From sequence record OR352949.1: a stretch of 64,000 nucleotides of DNA, one strand, 5' to 3'. The notes below the pieces were generated by a model that was not told the origin of the DNA, made no database searches, and was given only the letters and a program-made list of their open reading frames with translations. The position numbers and the translations under genes were made by a program. Origin of the DNA: Escherichia phage AV119. Shown here in pieces: positions 3,915 to 63,833 of this stretch (positions within the stretch are counted from its first letter, which is position 1; each line of letters opens with the position of its first letter).

Positions 3915-4495
3915 TATTCACCGCAGAATTCGTTGATATTTTCCCAGTTTAACTTATTCAAGTTTTTCTTAGGAACATTAAACACTTCAATACCTGCATT
4001 TCGCAGAATATCATCCCAACCAGGTTTATTTTTGTCGTATGTTTCACAATAAACCAGCTTTTTAATACCAGATTGAGCTATCGCTTTTGCGCAATCTGGG
4101 CAAGGAGAAAGTGTTACATACATAGTAGCACCTTCAATAGAAGAACCATTTCGTGCAGCAAACAAAATTGCATTTAGTTCAGCATGAATTTCATTTTTAG
4201 ATGACCATTCCGAGTGAGCACTACGATGTTCTTTCGCCAAAACAAAACGATCAGTTGAACCAAATGATACGCATTCAGGCTTATGACCTTGAATGATAGT
4301 ATGTTTAGGCTTATTCAACAACCAACCTTGCTCAGCAGCATAATCACAACAGTTCACACCCCCTGCGGGGGAACCATTATACCCAGTAGAAATAATACGT
4401 CCATTCTTTTCAATTACTGCTCCTACCTTCCAGGAGCAACATTTTGATTCCTGCGATACTAAATATGCAATTTGAAGTACTGTACTCGCTTTCAT
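3914..4495 (-). CDS. cd: dCMP deaminase
   Basis: 193 aa; cytidine/dCMP deaminase zinc motifs (HAE...PCxxC); T4 Cd length. Confidence 0.9.
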   Translation of the reverse strand: MKASTVLQIAYLVSQESKCCSWKVGAVIEKNGRIISTGYNGSPAGGVNCCDYAAEQGWLLNKPKHTIIQGHKPECVSFGSTDRFVLAKEHRSAHSEWSSKNEIHAELNAILFAARNGSSIEGATMYVTLSPCPDCAKAIAQSGIKKLVYCETYDKNKPGWDDILRNAGIEVFNVPKKNLNKLNWENINEFCGE

Positions 4496-4830
4496 TTCAT
4501 AATCACCAGATAAGCAGATTTAGCAGTTTCAACACGATAAATTTCGTGACGAAGTTTAGTTATACTTTTAATAACAGAACTAATTATATTCTGTCCGTCT
4601 TTAAAGCGGTTTTTCTTATCAATAAAAATTGCACCAGTCATCTTTTTGTGAAGCTCAACTGGATACTTCGTCACAATAATAGCATCATACACAGAAGGAT
4701 GAATACTATTCACCAGAGTATCATTCATTAAAGTTATTCTAATGAACTTTGCTGTTTCAGAGTCAAGCGCTCTATGATCACCAGTATCGTTTTCAAGACA
4801 ATTATCAATTATATCAGTTAAATTCATCAT
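4492..4830 (-). CDS. hypothetical protein (112 aa), cd.1-like
   Basis: co-oriented ORF, stop/start overlap. Confidence 0.55.
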   Translation of the reverse strand: MMNLTDIIDNCLENDTGDHRALDSETAKFIRITLMNDTLVNSIHPSVYDAIIVTKYPVELHKKMTGAIFIDKKNRFKDGQNIISSVIKSITKLRHEIYRVETAKSAYLVIMK

Positions 4831-5063
4831 AGTACGCCATACACCCTTTGTGCTTCAACTAATCCATCAAAATCCAATTTGAGATGTGTTATTTGGTCAC
4901 CATCACCTGGATTCACAATTACTAATACTGAACGAGGAGTTTCGGTAATAACACGAACCGATGTTTCTGGAAATCGTTCAGAAACCTTATTTACCAATTC
5001 CTGAGCAAATAGTTTAACTTTTTCTTGGAATTCTTTAACAGTAATTGGTTTTTCACTTAGCAT
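4827..5063 (-). CDS. hypothetical protein (78 aa), cd.2-like
   Basis: co-oriented ORF. Confidence 0.55.
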   Translation of the reverse strand: MLSEKPITVKEFQEKVKLFAQELVNKVSERFPETSVRVITETPRSVLVIVNPGDGDQITHLKLDFDGLVEAQRVYGVL

Positions 5064-5406: not shown

Positions 5407-5595
5407 CCCACATAATTTTCTTCAAGCCAATTAATAACATCCAACGCATTATCAAAAGTTGAACCATCTACTATGTCTTCTGTTTCATAATCAAGAATAT
5501 CTAAGTCTATTCTTCCATCAACAATAGGCCATAAACAAAATAGATATTTCTTTTCTTTTTCAATTTTATCGCAAAGTTGATAAATCTTTTCTATG

Positions 5596-5603
<8 letters not shown>
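5403..5603 (-). CDS. hypothetical protein (66 aa), cd.4-like
   Basis: co-oriented ORF. Confidence 0.5.
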
Positions 5604-6695
<1,092 letters not shown>

Positions 6696-25660: not shown

Positions 25661-26776
25661 ATGGAAAAATTTATGGCAGAGTTTGGACAAGGATATGTCC
25701 AAACGCCATTTTTATCGGAAAGTAATTCAGTAAGATACAAAATAAGTATAGCGGGTTCTTGCCCGCTTTCTACAGCAGGACCATACGTTAAATTTCAGGA
25801 TAATCCTATAGGAAATCAAACATTTAGCGCAGGTCTTCATTTAAGAGTTTTTGACCCTTCCACGGGAGCATTAGTTGATAGTAAGTCATATGCTTTTTCT
25901 ACTTCAAATGATACTACATCAGCTGCTTTTGTTAGTTTCATGAATTCTTTGACGAATAATAGAATTGTTGCTATATTAACTAACGGAAAGGTTAATTTTC
26001 CTCCTGAAGTAGTATCTTGGTTAAGAACAGCTGGAACGTCTGCTTTTCCATCTGATTCTATATTGTCAAGATTCGACGTATCATATGCTGCTTTTTACAC
26101 TTCTTCTAAAAGAGCTATCGCATTAGAGCATGTTAAACTGAGCAACAGAAAAAGCACGGATGATTATCAAACTATTTTAGATGTTGTATTTGACAGTTTA
26201 GAAGATGTCGGAGCTACCGGGTTTCCAAGAAGAACGTATGAAAGCGTTGAGCAATTTATGTCAGCGGTTGGTGGAACTAATAACGAAATTGCGAGATTGC
26301 CAACTTCAGCTGCTATAAGTAAATTATCTGATTATAATTTAATTCCTGGAGATGTTCTTTATCTTAAAGCCCAGTTATATGCTGATGCCGATTTACTTGC
26401 TCTTGGAACTACGAATATATCCATTCGATTTTATAATGCATCAAATGGATATATTTCCTCAACACAGGCTGAATTTACCGGGCAAGCTGGATCTTGGGAA
26501 TTAAAGGAAGATTATGTAGTTGTTCCAGAAAACGCTGTAGGATTTACGATATATGCACAAAGAACTGCACAAGCTGGTCAAGGCGGCATGAGAAATTTAA
26601 GCTTTTCTGAAGTATCAAGAAATGGCGGCATTTCAAAACCTGCTGAATTTGGCGTCAACGGTATTCGCGTTAATTATGTCTGTGAATCTGCTTCACCTCC
26701 GGATATAATGGTACTTCCTACGCAAGCATCGTCTAAAACTGGTAAAGTGTTTGGACAAGAATTTAGAGAAGTTTAA
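25661..26776 (+). CDS. 35: gp35 long tail fibre hinge connector
   Basis: 371 aa; position and length as T4 gp35. Confidence 0.9.
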   Translation: MEKFMAEFGQGYVQTPFLSESNSVRYKISIAGSCPLSTAGPYVKFQDNPIGNQTFSAGLHLRVFDPSTGALVDSKSYAFSTSNDTTSAAFVSFMNSLTNNRIVAILTNGKVNFPPEVVSWLRTAGTSAFPSDSILSRFDVSYAAFYTSSKRAIALEHVKLSNRKSTDDYQTILDVVFDSLEDVGATGFPRRTYESVEQFMSAVGGTNNEIARLPTSAAISKLSDYNLIPGDVLYLKAQLYADADLLALGTTNISIRFYNASNGYISSTQAEFTGQAGSWELKEDYVVVPENAVGFTIYAQRTAQAGQGGMRNLSFSEVSRNGGISKPAEFGVNGIRVNYVCESASPPDIMVLPTQASSKTGKVFGQEFREV

Positions 26777-26781
26777 ATTGA

Positions 26782-26808
26782 GGGAGCCTTCGGGTTCCCT
26801 TTTTCTTT
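26782..26808 (+). terminator. rho-independent terminator after gene 35 (gggagcc-ttcg-ggttccc + T-tract)
   Basis: stem-loop followed by tttttcttt on plus strand. Confidence 0.5.
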
Positions 26809-26815
26809 ATAAATA
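26808..26815 (+). promoter_or_regulatory. T4-type late promoter TATAAATA upstream of gene 36
   Basis: exact TATAAATA 24 nt upstream of gene 36 ATG. Confidence 0.6.
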
Positions 26816-26838: not shown

Positions 26839-27495
26839 ATGGCTGATTTAAAAGTAGGTTCAACAACCGGAGGCTCTGTCATTTGGCATCAAGGAAATTT
26901 TCCATTGAATCCAGCCGGTGACGATGTACTCTATAAATCATTTAAAATATATTCAGAATATAATAAACCACAAGCTGCAGATAACGATTTCGTTTCTAAA
27001 GCTAATGGTGGTACTTATTTAAATAAAGTAATTTTTAATAAAGGAATGACTGTTCCTGGCGCAGGGTCAGGTGATAATGGTATTTTTGCTGGTCCTGGTG
27101 ATAGTGCCACGTATGATACTACAAATATGGATATTGTTTCGTGGTATGGTATTGGTTTTAAATCATCACAAGGAACAGCAGGTAGAACTGTAGTAATTAA
27201 CACGCGAAATGGAGATATTAGCTCAAAGGGTGTAATTGAAGCATCACAAATCCGTGTAACTTCGTTATCACCAGTAAATAATTATGACCTTACGCGGAAA
27301 GATTATGTTGATGGAGCAATAAATATTGTTACAGCAAACGCAAACTCTAGGGTATTACGCTCTGGAGACACTATGACAGGAAATTTAACTGCGCCAAACC
27401 TTTTTTCACAGAATCCTGCATCTCAACCCTCACATGTTCCACGATTTGATCAAATTGTTATTAAGGATTCTGTTCAAGATTTCGGCTATTATTAA
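26839..27495 (+). CDS. 36: gp36 long tail fibre distal connector
   Basis: 218 aa; position between 35 and 37. Confidence 0.9.
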   Translation: MADLKVGSTTGGSVIWHQGNFPLNPAGDDVLYKSFKIYSEYNKPQAADNDFVSKANGGTYLNKVIFNKGMTVPGAGSGDNGIFAGPGDSATYDTTNMDIVSWYGIGFKSSQGTAGRTVVINTRNGDISSKGVIEASQIRVTSLSPVNNYDLTRKDYVDGAINIVTANANSRVLRSGDTMTGNLTAPNLFSQNPASQPSHVPRFDQIVIKDSVQDFGYY

Positions 27496-27503
27496 GAGGA
27501 CTT

Positions 27504-30500
27504 ATGGCTACTTTAAAACAAATACAATTTAAAAGAAGCAAAACTGCAGGAGCACGTCCTGCCGCTTCAGTATTAGCCGAAGGTGAATTGGCTATAAACT
27601 TAAAAGACCGTGTACTTTTTACTAAAGATGACCAAGGAAATATTATTGATCTGGGTTTTGCTAAAGGCGGTAATATTGACGGGAATGTTATTCATACAGG
27701 CAATTATAACCAAACTGGCGATTATACTTTAAATGGCGTCTTCACTCAGACTGGTAATTTTAATTTAACTGGTATTGCTCGAGTAACTCGCGATATTATT
27801 GCCGCTGGGCAGATTATGACTGAAGGCGGAGAACTTATTACAAAAAGTTCAGGTACAGCGCATGTTAGTTTTTTCGATAACAATAGTCGCGAACGCGGAA
27901 TCATTTATGCCCCGGCTAATGATGGTTTAACTACACAAGTACTTAATATCAGGGTTCAAGACTACGCCGCTGGTAGCGAAAGCATTTATGCATTTTCAGG
28001 CAGTGGACTATTTACTTCACCTGAAGTATCAGCATGGAAATCTATTTCGTCTCCACAAATTCTAACCAACAAAGTCATTACTAATAATAAATCTACGGGT
28101 GATTATGACATCTATTCGATGGCAGACAATGTTCCATTGTCTGAAAGCACTACTGCTATTAATCATCTTCGTGTCATGCGTAATGCCGTTGGTTCTGGTA
28201 TTTTCCATGAAGTTAAAGATAATGATGGAATAACTTGGTATGCAGGTGATGGACTTGACACCTATCTTTGGTCATTTACTTGGAGCGGCGGAATTAAATC
28301 AAGTCACTCAATTTCTATTGGTTTAACACCTGGTAATAAAGATTATTCAATATTAGGACCATCTAGTATTGCTTTAGGAGATAATGATACTGGATTTAAA
28401 TGGCATCAAGATGGATATTATTTTAGCGTTAATAATGGAACAAAAACGTTTTTATTTAGTCCTAGCGAAACAACTAGCCTAAGAAAATTTGTAGCTGGAT
28501 ATTCTACTAACGGAACCGATTTAACTACTCCTCCAACTGAAAATTATGCTCTTGCTACTGTCGTGACATACCATGATAATAACGCGTTTGGGGATGGTCA
28601 GACTCTTTTAGGATATTATCAAGGCGGTAACTATCATCATTATTTCCGCGGCAAGGGCACTACAAACATTAATACTCACGGCGGTTTGTTAGTTACTCCA
28701 GGCAATATTGACGTTATTGGTGGTTCTGTTAATATCGATGGTAGAAATAATGCTTCTACAGCGCTGTTTAAAGGTAACACAACAGGTAGTAGTTCTGTGG
28801 ATAACATGACAATTTCTGTGTGGGGTAATACATTTACTAATCCTAGCGAAGGTAATCGCAAAAATGTCATGGAAATTTCCGATGCAACTAGCTGGATGAG
28901 CTATATTCAAAGACTTACAACAGGTGAAGTAGAAATGAACGTTAACGGTTCATTTGAATCATCTGGTGTTACTGCTGGAAATAGAGGAGTTCACACAACA
29001 GGCGAAATTTCATCTGGAGCAGTGAATGCGCTTCGCATTTGGAACGCAGATTATGGAGCTATTTTTAGACGTTCAGAAGGCAGTCTTCATATTATTCCAA
29101 CTGCTTACGGTGAAGGTAAACACGGCGATATCGGTCCACTTCGCCCGTTTAGTATGGCTTTAGATACTGGTAAAGTTACTATTCCAGATTTACAATCAAG
29201 TTACAATACGTTCGCTGCTAACGGTTATATTAAATTTGTTGGTCATGGCGCAGGCGCTGGCGGTTATGATATTCAATATGCTCAAGCGGCTCCTATTTTC
29301 CAGGAAATCGATGATGATGCTGTAAGCAAATATTATCCTATTGTTAAACAGAAGTTTCTAAACGGTAAATCCGTTTGGTCTTTAGGTACTGAAATTAATT
29401 CAGGTACATTCGTTATTCATCATCTGAAAGAAGATGGTTCACAAGGCCATACGTCTCGTTTTAATCAAGACGGTACTGTTAACTTCCCAGATAACGTTCA
29501 GGTCGGCGGCGGTGAAGCTACTATTGCTCGTAATGGTAATATTTTCTCAGATATTTGGAAATCGTTTACTTCTGCAGGAGACACTACAAATATTCGTGAC
29601 GCAATAGCTACTCGTGTTGCTAAAGAAGGCGATACGATGACCGGTAAGTTGATTATTAGAAGAGATTCTGACGCTATTAACTTAGCTGCGCCTTCGACAA
29701 CTGATGCAAGTTACCTTCTTTCTACGGGCGCTGGTGAAAATCTATGGTATATTGGTAAAGGCGGCGCTGATAATACTGTATCATTCTACAACTATAAAAC
29801 CAGTGGGGCTGTGCAAATTAACTCTATTGGTGAAATTGCGCTGATTCCACAAGGTGCTGCAACATTTAACTTTAACCGCGATCGTCTCCATATAAATGGG
29901 ACTCAATGGACTGCACATCAAGCTGGTGACTGGGGTAACCAATGGCGTCAAGAAGCTCCTATATTTGTGGATTTTGGTAGTGTCGGCAATGACTGCTATT
30001 ATCCTATTATTAAAGGAAAATCTGTTATTACGAATGAAGGATACGTATCTGGTGTTGATTTCGGTATGCGACGCATTACTAATAACTGGGCACAAGGTAT
30101 TATCCGTGTAGGTAATCAGGAAAACGGTTCCGACCCACAAGCTATCTTCGAATTCCACCATAATGGAAACATGTACGTTCCTGACATGGTTAAAGCTGGA
30201 GTAAGAATATCAGCTGGTGGAGGTGACCCTGTATGGACAGGCGCATGCGTTGTTATTGGTGATAATGATACCGGATTAGTTCATGGCGGTGACGGTCGTA
30301 TTAACATGGTTGCAAATGGAACGCATATTGCATCATGGGGCACGATGTATCAATCTCATCCAGGCCTTTGGGATTCAAATGGAGCTTTTTGGACAGAAGT
30401 TGGCAAAGCAATTATTTCTCATGGCCATTTAGTTCAGGCGAATGACAGTTATTCCACATATGTCCGCGATGTTTATGTCCGCTCTGATATTCGTGTTAAA

Positions 30501-30818
30501 AAGAACCTAGTTAAATTTGAAAATGCTTCTGAGAAGCTTTCAAAAATTAATGGTTACACTTATATGCAGAAGCGAGGCCTAGATGAAGAAGGTAATCAAA
30601 AATGGGAACCTAATGCCGGTTTAATTGCCCAAGAAGTTCAAGCTATTTTACCTGAATTAGTTGAAGGCGATCAGGATAGTGAAGCTTTACTTCGTTTGAA
30701 CTATAACGGTGTAATTGGTTTAAATACAGCTGCAATCAATGAGCATACTGCAGAAATTGCAGAACTTAAGTCAGAGATTGAAGAGCTTAAAAAATTAGTT
30801 AAATCATTGTTAAAATAA
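27504..30818 (+). CDS. 37: gp37 long tail fibre distal subunit with C-terminal intramolecular-chaperone-like domain
   Basis: 1104 aa; C-terminal SDIRVKKNL...coiled-coil tail resembles self-cleaving chaperone domains of fibre/spike proteins. Confidence 0.9.
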   Translation: MATLKQIQFKRSKTAGARPAASVLAEGELAINLKDRVLFTKDDQGNIIDLGFAKGGNIDGNVIHTGNYNQTGDYTLNGVFTQTGNFNLTGIARVTRDIIAAGQIMTEGGELITKSSGTAHVSFFDNNSRERGIIYAPANDGLTTQVLNIRVQDYAAGSESIYAFSGSGLFTSPEVSAWKSISSPQILTNKVITNNKSTGDYDIYSMADNVPLSESTTAINHLRVMRNAVGSGIFHEVKDNDGITWYAGDGLDTYLWSFTWSGGIKSSHSISIGLTPGNKDYSILGPSSIALGDNDTGFKWHQDGYYFSVNNGTKTFLFSPSETTSLRKFVAGYSTNGTDLTTPPTENYALATVVTYHDNNAFGDGQTLLGYYQGGNYHHYFRGKGTTNINTHGGLLVTPGNIDVIGGSVNIDGRNNASTALFKGNTTGSSSVDNMTISVWGNTFTNPSEGNRKNVMEISDATSWMSYIQRLTTGEVEMNVNGSFESSGVTAGNRGVHTTGEISSGAVNALRIWNADYGAIFRRSEGSLHIIPTAYGEGKHGDIGPLRPFSMALDTGKVTIPDLQSSYNTFAANGYIKFVGHGAGAGGYDIQYAQAAPIFQEIDDDAVSKYYPIVKQKFLNGKSVWSLGTEINSGTFVIHHLKEDGSQGHTSRFNQDGTVNFPDNVQVGGGEATIARNGNIFSDIWKSFTSAGDTTNIRDAIATRVAKEGDTMTGKLIIRRDSDAINLAAPSTTDASYLLSTGAGENLWYIGKGGADNTVSFYNYKTSGAVQINSIGEIALIPQGAATFNFNRDRLHINGTQWTAHQAGDWGNQWRQEAPIFVDFGSVGNDCYYPIIKGKSVITNEGYVSGVDFGMRRITNNWAQGIIRVGNQENGSDPQAIFEFHHNGNMYVPDMVKAGVRISAGGGDPVWTGACVVIGDNDTGLVHGGDGRINMVANGTHIASWGTMYQSHPGLWDSNGAFWTEVGKAIISHGHLVQANDSYSTYVRDVYVRSDIRVKKNLVKFENASEKLSKINGYTYMQKRGLDEEGNQKWEPNAGLIAQEVQAILPELVEGDQDSEALLRLNYNGVIGLNTAAINEHTAEIAELKSEIEELKKLVKSLLK

Positions 30819-30848
30819 TAAGAGGGGCTTCGGCCCTTGGAGGTTTAT

Positions 30849-31640
30849 ATGGCAGTTGAAGGACCGTGGGTAGGATGGTCTGCGAGGGTACAAACTGGAG
30901 ACCCTTGGATGGGTGGTGCCGCACAGAGATTGAGAATGGGAATTCCGTTTTGGATGAGTAATATGATAGGTCGATCTGTTGAAGTAATTCACACGCTTGG
31001 AGCAGACCATAACTTCAATGGTCAATGGTTCCGAGATAGATGTTTTGAGGCAGGTAATGCACCTATAGTGTTTAATATTACAGGTGATTTAGTATCATAT
31101 TCTAAAGATGTTCCTTTATTCTTCATGTACGGAGATACACCAAATGAATATGTTCAGTTAAATATTATTGGCGCTCATATGTGGGGTAGAGGTGGACAAG
31201 GTGGATGGACTCATTCCGGTGGAGATGGTAATGGACAACAAGGCGGGCATTGTATTCAAAACGACATTGGTGGACGATTAAGAATTAACAATGGTGGAGT
31301 AATCTGTGGTGGCGGAGGCGGTGGTGGCGGCATTGCTTACCGTGTTCACTCAGGGGCAAACTGGCAAGATATTGGTGGTGGCGGCGGAAGACCATTTGGC
31401 CCAGGTGGTGGCGGTGGTTACTCAGGTGGCGCAGCTTCATACGTCGCCCCAGGAGGTGGTTACCAATACGGAAATGCTCACTCTGGCCAGGGCGGCGATG
31501 CCGGAGGAAATGGACAAAATGCCTGGTCTGATGGTGGTAAAGTTCTAAAGGTTGGTGCAGGAGGAGCAGCAGGTTATGCTGTCATAGGATCTGCTCCAAC
31601 TTGGCAAAATGTTGGAGTAATATATGGTCCAAGAGTATAA
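30849..31640 (+). CDS. 38: gp38 tail fibre adhesin (T2 type, glycine-rich motifs)
   Basis: 263 aa from MAVEG (RBS GGAGG 5 nt upstream); several poly-Gly runs GGGGGGGG; size unlike the 183-aa T4 gp38 chaperone. Confidence 0.85.
31300..31440 (+). repeat. GGY/GGC glycine-codon repeat tracts inside gene 38
   Basis: ggtggcggaggcggtggtggcggc and related runs. Confidence 0.6.
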
Positions 31641-31671
31641 TTTTGAATAAATACCCCTAAAAGGAGGGTCT

Positions 31672-32328
31672 ATGGCAGCACCTAGAATATCATTTTCGCC
31701 CTCTGATATTCTATTTGGTGTTCTAGATCGCTTGTTCAAAGATAACGCTACCGGGAAAGTTCTTGCTTCCCGGGTAGCTGTCGTAATTCTTTTGTTTATG
31801 ATGGCGATTGTTTGGTATAGGGGAGATAGTTTCTTTGAGTACTATAAGCAATCAAAGTATGAAACATACAGTGAAATTATTGAAAAGGAAAGAAATGCAC
31901 GCTTTGAATCTGTCGCCCTGGAACAACTCCAGATAGTTCATATATCATCTGAGGCAGACTTTAGTGCGGTGTATTCTTTCCGCCCTAAAAACTTAAACTA
32001 TTTTGTTGATATTATAGCATATGAAGGAAAATTACCTTCAACAATAAGCGAAAAATCACTTGGAGGATATCCTGTTGATAAAACTATGGATGAATATACA
32101 GTTCATTTAAATGGACGTCATTATTATTCTGACTCAAAATTTGCTTTTTTACCAACTAAAAAGCCTACTCCCGAAATAAATTACATGTACAGTTGTCCAT
32201 ATTTCAATTTGGATAATATCTATGCTGGAACAATAACCATGTACTGGTATAGAAATGATCATATAAGTAATGACCGCCTTGAATCAATATGTTCTCAGGC
32301 GGCCAGAATATTAGGAAGGGCTAAATAA
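31672..32328 (+). CDS. t: holin T
   Basis: 218 aa, single N-terminal TMD, matches T4 holin T. Confidence 0.92.
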   Translation: MAAPRISFSPSDILFGVLDRLFKDNATGKVLASRVAVVILLFMMAIVWYRGDSFFEYYKQSKYETYSEIIEKERNARFESVALEQLQIVHISSEADFSAVYSFRPKNLNYFVDIIAYEGKLPSTISEKSLGGYPVDKTMDEYTVHLNGRHYYSDSKFAFLPTKKPTPEINYMYSCPYFNLDNIYAGTITMYWYRNDHISNDRLESICSQAARILGRAK

Positions 32329-62052: not shown

Positions 62053-63479
62053 TAAAATTTTAATTCATTTGCCAAAGCATCTAACTGAGCTCGAGCTGAT
62101 TCGTTTCTTTGATAGCGATTCTGTTCAGCCTGAATCTGTTGTGAACCTGCTACTTCACTCACTTCGGTTGGAGTAGAATCTTGTTCAATTTCTACCCATT
62201 TTTGATTTCCTTTTTGAACACCCATCAAAAACTTATTCCACTTATTCTTATCACCATATCGTGATTTGATTTGCTTAATAAGTTGTTGTTCAGCAGCTGC
62301 TAGCTCCTCAGTTTCAATGACCGCAAGCATAAAATCAGCTGTTGCTGGAAGACCAGCAGATTCTGCAATATCGCTCATGTTAACATCGGAAGAGTCCCAA
62401 GCTTGTTTACCGACCTGTGCTGCAGTCCAAAGAACAGTTTCGGTTTCAACAGCCAGAGCACGCAATTCCTCTGCGATAGCTTTAACAGTTGTGTAACTAT
62501 TTTCTGAATAAACTCGGATGCGACAAGATTTACAAATACCCAGATAGTCGACAATAATGATTGTTGGAACAAAATTCTTCTTGAGCTTTAATTCATTTAA
62601 AAGTGATCGAAATGTATTAGCGTCTGCTCCACCAGTAGGATATTGCTTAACGATTAAACGACCAAGGGTAGATTTCTCACGCCATTTTTCCATTTTTCCT
62701 TTATATTCAGCGTAAGAAATATGCCCATCATCAATGTCATCAAGAGAAACATCAAGCATATTAGCATCAATACGCTTAGCACAGACTTCTTCTGCCATTT
62801 CCATGGAAATATAAAGAACATTATGTCCGAGCTGTAAATAATCTGCCGCTAATGAACACAATCCTAATGATTTACCAACGTTAACGCCAGCCATTAAAAC
62901 GTTCAGTGTTCCAGTCTCAGCTCCGCCTTTAGTAATTTTGTTTAGAATTCTGAGTTTAAATGGAACCTTACGAGCTTTATTCATATAAGATAGCCAACGC
63001 GCTTCATAGTCATCCATCCAATCATGACCAACGTAGCTATCAAATGAAATTGATAATGCTTGGCGCATGATGTCAGGAATAGCACCTACATCTGGCATTT
63101 TCTTATTTCGTTTTTCCGGAGGAAGCTCAGCATTAGTTTGAATTTCGATTATTTTAGACGTAGCATTAAACATCGCCCTTTGCTGAACATATTTTTCTGT
63201 TTCTTTTATTAACCAACTGTGGTCTTCTGGAGAATCAGCTAGTTTTGAAATAAGTGTTTTTACACCAGAATATTCTGTTTCAGTAAATGAACTATTTTCT
63301 AATGCAACATTTAACGCATTAATAGATGGAACGCTATGATACTCATTGACATGAGATTTAATTAATTTGAATGTATTTTTAGCTGGACCACTTTCAAAAT
63401 ATTCTGAATCCATATATGGCCAAACTTTTGAAAAATAAGCTTGATCAAATATGAGATGAGAAAGAATAATTTCTACCAC
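62052..63479 (-). CDS. 41: replicative DNA helicase gp41 (DnaB-like)
   Basis: 475 aa; Walker A GVNVGKS; matches T4 gp41. Confidence 0.95.
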   Translation of the reverse strand: MVEIILSHLIFDQAYFSKVWPYMDSEYFESGPAKNTFKLIKSHVNEYHSVPSINALNVALENSSFTETEYSGVKTLISKLADSPEDHSWLIKETEKYVQQRAMFNATSKIIEIQTNAELPPEKRNKKMPDVGAIPDIMRQALSISFDSYVGHDWMDDYEARWLSYMNKARKVPFKLRILNKITKGGAETGTLNVLMAGVNVGKSLGLCSLAADYLQLGHNVLYISMEMAEEVCAKRIDANMLDVSLDDIDDGHISYAEYKGKMEKWREKSTLGRLIVKQYPTGGADANTFRSLLNELKLKKNFVPTIIIVDYLGICKSCRIRVYSENSYTTVKAIAEELRALAVETETVLWTAAQVGKQAWDSSDVNMSDIAESAGLPATADFMLAVIETEELAAAEQQLIKQIKSRYGDKNKWNKFLMGVQKGNQKWVEIEQDSTPTEVSEVAGSQQIQAEQNRYQRNESARAQLDALANELKF

Positions 63480-63488
63480 ACTTACTCC

Positions 63489-63833
63489 TTAAAAGAATTT
63501 AAATTTTTTCTTTGACCTTTTATTAAATGCATCTTGTAGTTGCATTGTAATACATTTTTCTACATGAGGAGCTAACTCAGCTTTTCTTTCTTGGTCAAGA
63601 ACAGCAAAGTCCATTACAACCTTTCCATCAACCCAATCCAGTTTAGTTACATACACTATATGTGTAGAACCATCTTCTAGTTTAATGACAATCTCCTGGA
63701 TAACATTTTCCATAGCAGATTTAATTATCTTAAGAGACTCATTAAAAAGACGTTCTTTTCTTTCTTCTTCCCCCTCCGAAGAGGGGGATTCATCGATAAT
63801 TTCTAGATCTAAATCTAAATCATCTTTATTCAT
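63489..63833 (-). CDS. 40: gp40 head vertex assembly chaperone
   Basis: 114 aa from ATG 63833 (ORF track GTG at 63851); position between uvsX and 41. Confidence 0.75.
   Translation of the reverse strand: MNKDDLDLDLEIIDESPSSEGEEERKERLFNESLKIIKSAMENVIQEIVIKLEDGSTHIVYVTKLDWVDGKVVMDFAVLDQERKAELAPHVEKCITMQLQDAFNKRSKKKFKFF

Follow-up and report, generated by a model that had tools for sequence, protein, structure and literature searches.

Introduction

The gp38 adhesins most closely related to the protein treated here have been described in several T-even-like phages. In the crystal structure of the S16 gp37-gp38 tip complex (6F45; Dunne et al. 2018), the gp38 homologue sits at the tip of the fibre, where it docks onto gp37 by means of three tryptophans, and its central polyglycine-II (PGII) helix 3 has been described from the same structure (PMC6851490). 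The cleavage site of S16 gp37 is likewise documented (PMC7917993). A further structure, 9V85, covers the receptor-binding domain of PP01 gp38. S16 binds OmpC and PP01 binds OmpC of E. coli O157; the receptor of T6 is Tsx and that of T2 is FadL. Amber mutants in gene 38 of T6 yield particles that look normal and cannot adsorb (PMC3157838). RB32 requires OmpA and is LPS-sensitive, and RB5xRB32 chimeras that carry the block of hypervariable segments (HVS) move OmpA/LPS recognition to RB5 (PMC3157838); the literature leaves both a direct and an indirect role of LPS possible (PMC3157838). An exchange of gp38 in T6-like phages changed the receptor from Tsx to OmpA, and even single loop substitutions can switch the receptor, as Q206L turned RB51/RB68 from OmpF to OmpW (bioRxiv 10.64898/2026.04.02.716166).

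Lutz et al. 2025 group the gp38 proteins of AV119 and FL08 as 'type 1' OmpA adhesins. Neither phage plates on MG1655 once ompA is deleted, and both infect strains with all eight OmpA variants tested; the modelled OmpA contacts of their adhesins are R165, V166, H167, S168, G169, A170, R181, D217 and R262 (PMC12032242). AV120, of which AV119 is the sister isolate, is a published Tequatrovirus from pig waste in Denmark, with an ESBL E. coli strain as isolation host. Its authors assign gp38 to the adhesins of the T2/T6 type and, from the similarity to AV111, predicted that the receptor is OmpA (PMC10844046), and in GenBank the protein is labelled 'tail fibers protein'. Here, we analysed gene 38 within a stretch of 64,000 nt, referred to as the window, and all coordinates are positions in it. 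The window is 100% identical to AV120, and the DNA of gene 38 corresponds without a mismatch to positions 62849-63640 of the AV120 record (OR352950.1, CDS WPK36575.1).

Gene 38 and its genomic context

The open reading frame of gene 38 extends from an ATG at 30849 to the end of the stop codon at 31640 (30849..31640, + strand). It encodes 263 aa plus stop and was assigned to the T2-type receptor-recognising adhesins based on the reading frame and on Pfam and PDB matches. The program-made list of reading frames lets it begin further upstream, with an in-frame TTG (30837). The true start is the ATG at 30849, because the homologues all begin with MAV or MAI and a ribosome-binding site, GGAGG, is present in the sequence at 30839-30843 (+ strand). 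The earlier note had described a 263-aa protein with several poly-glycine stretches at this place, and reading frame, length and architecture are all as described there.

Upstream lie gp35 (25661-26776) and gp36 (26839-27495). They are followed by gene 37 (27504..30818, + strand), recognised by its matches to T4 gp37 and 6F45_A, which encodes the distal long-tail-fibre subunit of 1104 aa and carrier of gp38. The conserved 3' neighbour of gene 38 is the holin gene t (31672..32328, + strand; Pfam Phage_holin_T, 1.8e-117), beyond which asiA, arn and motA lie on the other strand. The order 36-37-38-t is the classical T-even arrangement. Folding of the region between genes 37 and 38 revealed a hairpin, AGGGGC-UUCG-GCCCUU (30823..30838, + strand), just 5' of the GGAGG. 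It has a predicted energy of -9.7 kcal/mol and is kept, with variation, in the relatives; its stability is no better than that of shuffled sequence (z = -0.58). A T4 late-promoter consensus, TATAAATA, was not detected directly 5' of gene 38, the nearest one being located at 26808, ahead of gene 36. Scans for sigma-70 promoters and terminators around gene 38 gave scores without excess over shuffles.

Family membership, domain organisation and fold

Residues 45-263 of gp38 match the Pfam family GP38 (PF05268; 2e-66, 224.3 bits with a cut-off of 25), and residues 1-40 match Gp38_N (PF21721; 1.4e-19, 70.3 bits with a cut-off of 25). Among the PDB entries, the protein matches 9V85 with 1e-73 and the S16 gp38 chain 6F45_D with 2e-51 over residues 1-260, and a gapless-core alignment to these two structures covers every Gly-rich motif. 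No similarity was found to T4 gp38 (NP_049864), for which the best BLASTP alignment comprised 6/20 identities with an E-value of 0.81. On every feature that could be tested, gp38 is a T2-type adhesin, which bears out the preference of the earlier note for this class over the T4-type chaperone. The gp37 partner described below, with an S16-type tip and an intramolecular chaperone where T4 has a needle, adds to this evidence.

To compare the regions of the protein we used an alignment of 26 distinct gp38 sequences, including T2, T6, RB32, wV7, FL08, AV111, PYPS2T, PP01, S16 and IMG/VR contigs. Two IMG/VR scans returned only about 20 full-length relatives, a number that suits analyses of entropy and block linkage and is too small for a formal recombination test. 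The N-terminal attachment domain (aa 1-44; 30849..30980, + strand), delimited by Gp38_N and the alignment, is predicted to dock on the gp37 trimer tip. It contains W7, W20 and W35, which are the invariant tryptophans among eight diverse gp38 proteins and align with the S16 tryptophans in 6F45_D. The first part of the conserved beta-helix domain follows (aa 45-116; 30981..31196, + strand; alignment with 9V85 and 6F45) and shows the lowest mean entropy of the gp38 regions (0.74 bits). The highest mean entropy, 1.18 bits, was found in the Gly-rich receptor-binding region (aa 117-246; 31197..31586, + strand), of which 36% is glycine. Alignment with the PGII sandwiches of 6F45 and 9V85 suggests that its Gly-rich motifs form such a sandwich, interleaved with hypervariable loops. 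A conserved C-terminal strand (aa 247-263; 31587..31637, + strand), which includes R262, closes the beta-helix according to the alignment.

The positions of the loops were derived from PP01, whose loop A-E residue numbers were checked against the 9V85 sequence. The coordinates given here comprise the whole variable segment, and loops B to E consequently reach slightly past the mapped residues. Predicted loop A, equivalent to HVS1 (aa 119-127, GWTHSGGDG; 31203..31229, + strand), corresponds to PP01 loop-A W119-I124. A run of eight glycines (G8, aa 154-161; 31308..31331, + strand) is the equivalent of the central PGII helix 3 of S16 (151-GGGGGGGG-158) and precedes predicted loop B, or HVS2 (aa 162-175; 31332..31373, + strand), in which PP01 loop-B maps to residues 164-174. 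Next are a run of five glycines (aa 176-180; 31374..31388, + strand), the DNA of which repeats the 12-mer GGTGGTGGCGGC of position 31320, and an invariant RPFG. A second G5 run (aa 186-190) overlaps predicted loop C (aa 188-192; both within 31404..31424, + strand), as judged from composition and alignment; here, PP01 loop C maps to residues 188-191 and the variable segment spans 31410-31424. Predicted loop D, or HVS3 (aa 205-212, YQYGNAHS; 31461..31484, + strand), has its mapped residues at 206-210 and is derived from PP01 loop-D N204-Y209, and predicted loop E, or HVS4 (aa 223-236; 31515..31556, + strand), has them at 226-234 and is derived from PP01 loop-E N225-S231.

Across the C-domain of the 26 sequences, columns with Gly have a mean entropy of 0.56 bits and those without it 1.44 bits, which places the variation in the segments between the Gly runs, as the earlier note had described. 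Eight diverse gp38 proteins share the glycines G155-159, G176-180, G184, G187, G193, G202, G204, G213, G215/216, G219, G222, G230, G239 and G242, as well as R181 and P182 behind the run G176-180. A single-sequence AlphaFold2 model of gp38 reached a pLDDT of 30.8 and a pTM of 0.15, too low for use; the fold, presumably a polyglycine-II sandwich, was assigned via sequence homology to the crystal structures.

The known family members differ from this protein to varying degrees. S16 gp38 follows the same plan, with a three-Trp attachment domain, a beta-helix and a PGII sandwich with a G8 helix, but it is 46% identical overall and its loops are different. The beta-helix of PP01 gp38 is 89% identical, the Gly-rich scaffold is the same and loops A-E map one to one, whereas identity over aa 117-246 is 44%. 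T6 and T2 gp38 share the family, the gene position and the GRM/HVS plan, yet all of their HVS types differ and the attachment domain of T6 belongs to another type. What links it to T4 gp38 is no more than the name of the gene and its location between genes 37 and t; the T4 protein has 183 aa, is unrelated in sequence and is not a component of the virion.

Glycine content and repeats

Glycine accounts for 69 of the 263 residues of gp38 (26.2%); its share rises from 13-15% in the first 116 residues to 36% in residues 117-263. Among the 73 reading frames in the window that reach 100 aa, none is richer in glycine; their mean content is 5.5% (sd 3.4%), and gp37 ranks a distant second with 12%. The glycines form the runs G8 (154-161), G5 (176-180), G5 (186-190) and G3 (202-204) and another twelve GG pairs. 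When the residues of the C-domain were shuffled, a run of eight glycines was reached in 467/20000 shuffles and three runs of at least five in 191/20000, so that the clustering exceeds the expectation from composition only modestly.

At the DNA level, glycine is encoded by 30 GGT, 14 GGC, 23 GGA and 2 GGG codons. GGY codons thus make up 44/69 (64%) of the total and 16/18 inside the three long runs. The Gly codons also raise the local G+C content, which is 60% at 31300-31499 and 35% window-wide. Tandem Repeats Finder detected no DNA repeat array inside gene 38; the 'repetitive tracts' are therefore short GGN runs and not an array of DNA repeats. Of the exact repeats within the gene, none is longer than the 12-mer GGTGGTGGCGGC, which occurs at 31320 and 31374 and flanks HVS2. 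Since at least one repeated 12-mer was also present in 212/2000 codon shuffles (10.6%), this repeat does not exceed what chance would yield with these codons. Of the repetitive GGY tracts that the earlier note had seen in the gene, the predominance of GGY among the Gly codons holds, whereas the 23 GGA codons and the missing tandem array do not fit.

The gp37 partner

The gp37 encoded next to gp38 resembles T4 gp37 only in part. Residues 1 to ~640 are 35% identical, and the T4 alignment is limited to that part. Residues 913-1104 match the S16 gp37 tip and intramolecular chaperone (6F45_A, 1.8e-43), and Pfam Peptidase_S74 was detected at residues 994-1053. The intramolecular chaperone (IMC) is accordingly placed at aa 994-1104 (30483..30818, + strand) on the basis of Peptidase_S74 and the S16 alignment. 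The sequence DVYVR|SDIRVKK aligns with the S16 cleavage site DLNVS|SDRRIKK, so that S16 gp37 shares both the IMC and the context of the cleavage site. We predict that gp37 is cut between R993 and S994, because the site aligns with that of S16 and Peptidase_S74 starts at residue 994; the cut would then expose the face on which gp38 docks. A receptor site in the gp37 tip was also considered and rejected, as the gp37 C-terminus consists of an S74 chaperone and an S16-type docking tip and not of the T4 receptor-binding needle.

These features also bear on the possibility that gp38 is an assembly chaperone of the T4 type, which folds gp37 and is then released, leaving receptor recognition to the gp37 tip. 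In T4, too, a gene called 38 lies between gene 37 and t, and several GenBank records of homologues carry the description 'distal long tail fiber assembly catalyst'. Set against these labels are the sequence of T4 gp38, which is dissimilar, and a gp37 that is T4-like over its first ~640 residues and then ends in the S74 chaperone and docking tip. Neither the position of the S16 homologue, bound at the fibre tip in the crystal (PMC6851490), nor the normal-looking, non-adsorbing particles of the T6 gene 38 ambers (PMC3157838) would be expected of a chaperone that leaves the fibre. We therefore attribute a practically negligible probability to a chaperone function and treat gp38 as an adhesin in the following.

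Receptor assignment

Over aa 117-246, gp38 is 100% identical to PYPS2T, and over the longer stretch aa 117-263 its sequence recurs unchanged in PYPS2T, JK08 and ECML-123-2. In the phage collection, 23 records are at least 99% identical over aa 117-263 and 62 are at least 95% identical. Comparison of aa 117-246 with further phages yielded 99.2% identity to FL08, with Q173K as the sole difference, and 94.6% each to RB32 and wV7. The corresponding values are 48% for T6 (Tsx), 46% for S16 (OmpC), 44% for PP01 (OmpC) and 41% for T2 (FadL). HVS1-HVS4 all cluster with the OmpA group represented by FL08 and RB32, and at every HVS the sequence is unlike T6, T2, PP01 and S16. T6-like Tsx specificity was considered as a candidate and rejected in view of the 48% identity in aa 117-246. 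Moreover, all nine modelled OmpA-contact residues occur in the translated reading frame at identical numbering; R165-A170 are located inside loop B and D217 just upstream of loop E.

The loop set of gp38 can thus be classified as a 'type 1' OmpA allele by its sequence. Since the receptor-binding part is near-identical to that of OmpA-dependent FL08 and close to that of RB32, the extracellular loops of OmpA are most likely the receptor, with an infection that would also be sensitive to the LPS core. FL08 gp38 is 96% identical overall and has the same contacts (R165-A170, R181, D217, R262); its attachment domain carries six substitutions, however, and it is paired with a gp37 of 1109 aa, compared to 1104 aa here. 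The gp38 of RB32/RB33 (OmpA and LPS; Trojet et al. 2011) is of the same type at the four HVS and has an identical C-terminus. It differs in its T6-type attachment domain (52% identity, aa 1-44), in a different gp37 of 1027 aa and in seven substitutions in the receptor region, namely V166P, N171K, V199D, A200G, Q206N, G220A and S227H. That the variable segments are host-range determinants, as the earlier note had assumed, has support from published work with alleles that are nearly identical, namely the chimeras, the ompA deletion and the gp38 swap.

It may be argued that the adhesin uses a receptor other than OmpA, such as Tsx, OmpC, OmpF, FadL, OmpW or LPS alone. The AV120 paper calls gp38 most similar to that of T6, a Tsx phage (PMC10844046), and the best PDB match, 9V85, originates from an OmpC binder. 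The score of this match, however, stems from the conserved beta-helix and not from the loops, and in the region that contains the loops identity to T6, T2, PP01 and S16 is only 41-48%, with all four HVS of a different type. One residue change is in principle sufficient for a receptor switch, and the identical receptor-binding part is also found in a Yersinia phage, PYPS2T, while in JK08 it belongs to a phage isolated on Shigella. Nevertheless, OmpA-dependent FL08 differs by one residue in aa 117-246, and we regard a different receptor as very unlikely and OmpA as the candidate to be retained.

Mosaic structure of gene 38

The relationship to PYPS2T changes abruptly within the gene. Compared to this phage, gp37 shows 30-60% identity per 100 nt and is essentially unrelated, and gene 38 diverges as well in its first 138 nt. 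The last mismatch is located at 30986 and is followed by 954 identical bases (30987-31940). The pattern is reversed in comparison to wV7/AV111, with 97-100% identity at the C-terminal end of gp37 and at the beginning of gene 38, and wV7 mismatches become frequent from 30995. At the protein level, aa 1-44 are 98-100% identical to wV7/AV111 and 50% identical to PYPS2T. Judged by these mismatch patterns, gene 38 is a natural chimera, in which a wV7/AV111-like gp37 tip and attachment domain were joined to a PYPS2T-like receptor-binding part. The junction covers codons 46-49 (30986..30995, no strand assigned) and lies at the boundary between attachment domain and beta-helix, in conserved non-Gly sequence and outside the Gly tracts. 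Within each of the 26 gp38 sequences, HVS1-HVS4 are always of the same type and behave as one linked block, against which the types of the attachment domain and of the C-terminus reassort. The chimeras that Trojet et al. obtained are consistent with this pattern (PMC3157838).

The earlier note had regarded the GGT/GGC tracts as substrates for recombinational shuffling, and Gly-codon tracts could accordingly be the main recombination sites behind this allele, at which individual hypervariable segments are shuffled. Such shuffling is a published hypothesis (Tetart 1998, as cited in PMC3157838). The one piece of direct evidence that we found for Gly tracts as recombination substrates comes from a T6-like IMG/VR genome (L014), in which HVS2 occurs as a mismatch-free tandem duplication of 51 bp that is bounded by identical GGY tracts of 14 nt, GGCGGTGGCGGCGG. 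In addition, an engineered swap exchanged only HVS2 onward (bioRxiv 10.64898/2026.04.02.716166), and the 12-mer on both sides of HVS2 would offer homology, although codon shuffles produce a repeated 12-mer at the rate given above. The position of the junction outside the Gly tracts and the linkage of the four HVS in all 26 sequences, with reassorting N- and C-terminal types, speak against shuffling of single segments, as do the 14 selected chimeras of Trojet et al., none of which (0/14) had a crossover between GRM1 and GRM5 (PMC3157838). Gly tracts therefore remain plausible substrates, for which the duplication is weak support, but shuffling between them does not explain the mosaic of gene 38, and we consider it unlikely that they were the main recombination sites. 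A junction at codons 46-49 between a wV7/AV111-like and a PYPS2T-like part is the reading that we retain.

Discussion

Taken together, we have high confidence in a joint reading according to which gp38 caps the long tail fibre as a T2-type adhesin, likely binds OmpA and is encoded by a chimeric gene. Following the homologues in which this has been shown, gp37 would trimerise with the aid of its C-terminal intramolecular chaperone, which would then be cut off after R993 at DVYVR|SDIRVKK. A single gp38 could dock on the exposed tip of the trimer via aa 1-44, with Trp7, Trp20 and Trp35 inserting into three equivalent hydrophobic pockets of the gp37 tip. The remainder of gp38 is expected to form a beta-helix, from which the Gly-rich motifs would project as a three-layer lattice of polyglycine-II helices. 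Five hypervariable loops (approximately aa 119-127, 162-175, 188-192, 205-212 and 223-236) would be located at the far end of this lattice and may make the first, reversible contact with the host.

The literature already covers the family and its fold, what the loops do and which receptor AV120 probably uses, and our analysis does not change the current understanding. The practical gain over the label 'tail fibers protein' is the identification of an OmpA-type gp38 adhesin with mapped loops, a gp37 cleavage site and a mosaic junction. As host range in T2/T6-like phages is determined mainly by gp38, its typing helps to predict the strains that a therapeutic or biocontrol phage such as AV120 infects, and it flags the likely resistance mutation, here the loss or alteration of OmpA.

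In AV120, a gp37 tip and a gp38 attachment domain of the wV7/AV111 type are joined to a receptor-binding part that the Yersinia phage PYPS2T and the Shigella phage JK08 share unchanged, and in comparison to RB32 this part carries the loop variants V166, N171, V199/A200, Q206, G220 and S227. It may be speculated, with clear reservation, that this particular chimera has effects on host range beyond what could be predicted from RB32 or FL08. If this was true, the chimera could recognise OmpA across E. coli, Shigella and Yersinia. Another possible effect is that it recognises more OmpA loop variants, which could account for the broad range of ESBL E. coli hosts that has been reported for AV119 and AV120.

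Mosaic structure of gene 38 and the adjoining gp37 tip

Comparison with relatives revealed a sharp mosaic junction at window positions 30986-30995, which correspond to codons 46-49 of gene 38 (30849-31640, + strand) and lie just downstream of the part encoding the gp38 attachment domain (residues 1-44). On the 5' side of this junction, identity to phage wV7 and the Mosigvirus AV111 amounts to 97-100% in the C-terminus of gp37, the distal long-tail-fibre subunit (gene 37, 27504-30818, + strand), and in the attachment domain of gp38. On the 3' side, a stretch of 954 bases matches PYPS2T-like phages without a single difference; the gp37 of those phages is otherwise unrelated to that of the window. 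The attachment domain is thus inherited together with the gp37 tip and not with the receptor loops (within residues 117-246).

The intramolecular chaperone of gp37 is predicted to cleave itself off at 30480-30485 (R993|S994, DVYVR|SDIRVKK), which would remove the final 111 residues; GenBank gives this protein no more specific name than ‘tail fibers protein’. A UUCG-tetraloop hairpin (AGGGGC-UUCG-GCCCUU, 30823-30838), the folding of which is no better than that of shuffled sequence, separates the stop codon of gene 37 from the ribosome-binding site of gene 38. Its 3' arm is one C shorter in AV120 (OR352950, 100% identical to the window) than in wV7, AV111 and FL08. PYPS2T and RB32 carry a different hairpin, GGGGC-TTT-GCCCC.

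Public records label gp38 homologues as ‘tail protein and peptidase’, ‘distal long tail fiber assembly catalyst’, ‘flap endonuclease’, ‘hypothetical protein’ or ‘tail fibers protein’. Many of these labels transfer the name of the T4 chaperone to an unrelated adhesin.

Transcription, base composition and neighbouring genes

The T4 late-promoter consensus TATAAATA is present at 26808-26815 between genes 35 and 36 and absent directly upstream of gene 38, a pattern suggestive of a common transcript for genes 36, 37 and 38. Over the whole window, the count of this motif was not above chance. At 31300-31499, the G+C content rises to 60% with a strong positive GC skew, compared to 35% G+C in the genome. 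The glycine (GGN) codons of gp38 explain the peak entirely, and it is no indication of a foreign origin.

The hinge protein gp35 (25661-26776) matches the Pfam family ILEI (PF15711, E 6e-9, residues 58-127), ‘interleukin-like EMT inducer’, a surprising domain name for a tail-fibre connector. Downstream of gene 38, the holin gene t of wV7 (L020, around 5588-5638) diverges sharply from that of AV120 (32300-32328) at its 3' end, with 40% identity in the final 100-nt bin. In the wV7 record, this divergent end overlaps the annotated asiA.

Duplication of a receptor loop in a T6-like gp38

The IMG/VR contig L014 (IMGVR_UViG_2974787500_000001) encodes a T6-like gp38 (4001-4834) in which loop HVS2, the second hypervariable segment, has been duplicated in tandem as a perfect 51-bp repeat at residues about 155-188. 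The duplicated unit, GGGGG-YYSPFSQMRLTF, is present twice, and the duplication is flanked by identical GGCGGTGGCGGCGG tracts. It represents a natural case of unequal exchange between glycine-codon tracts.
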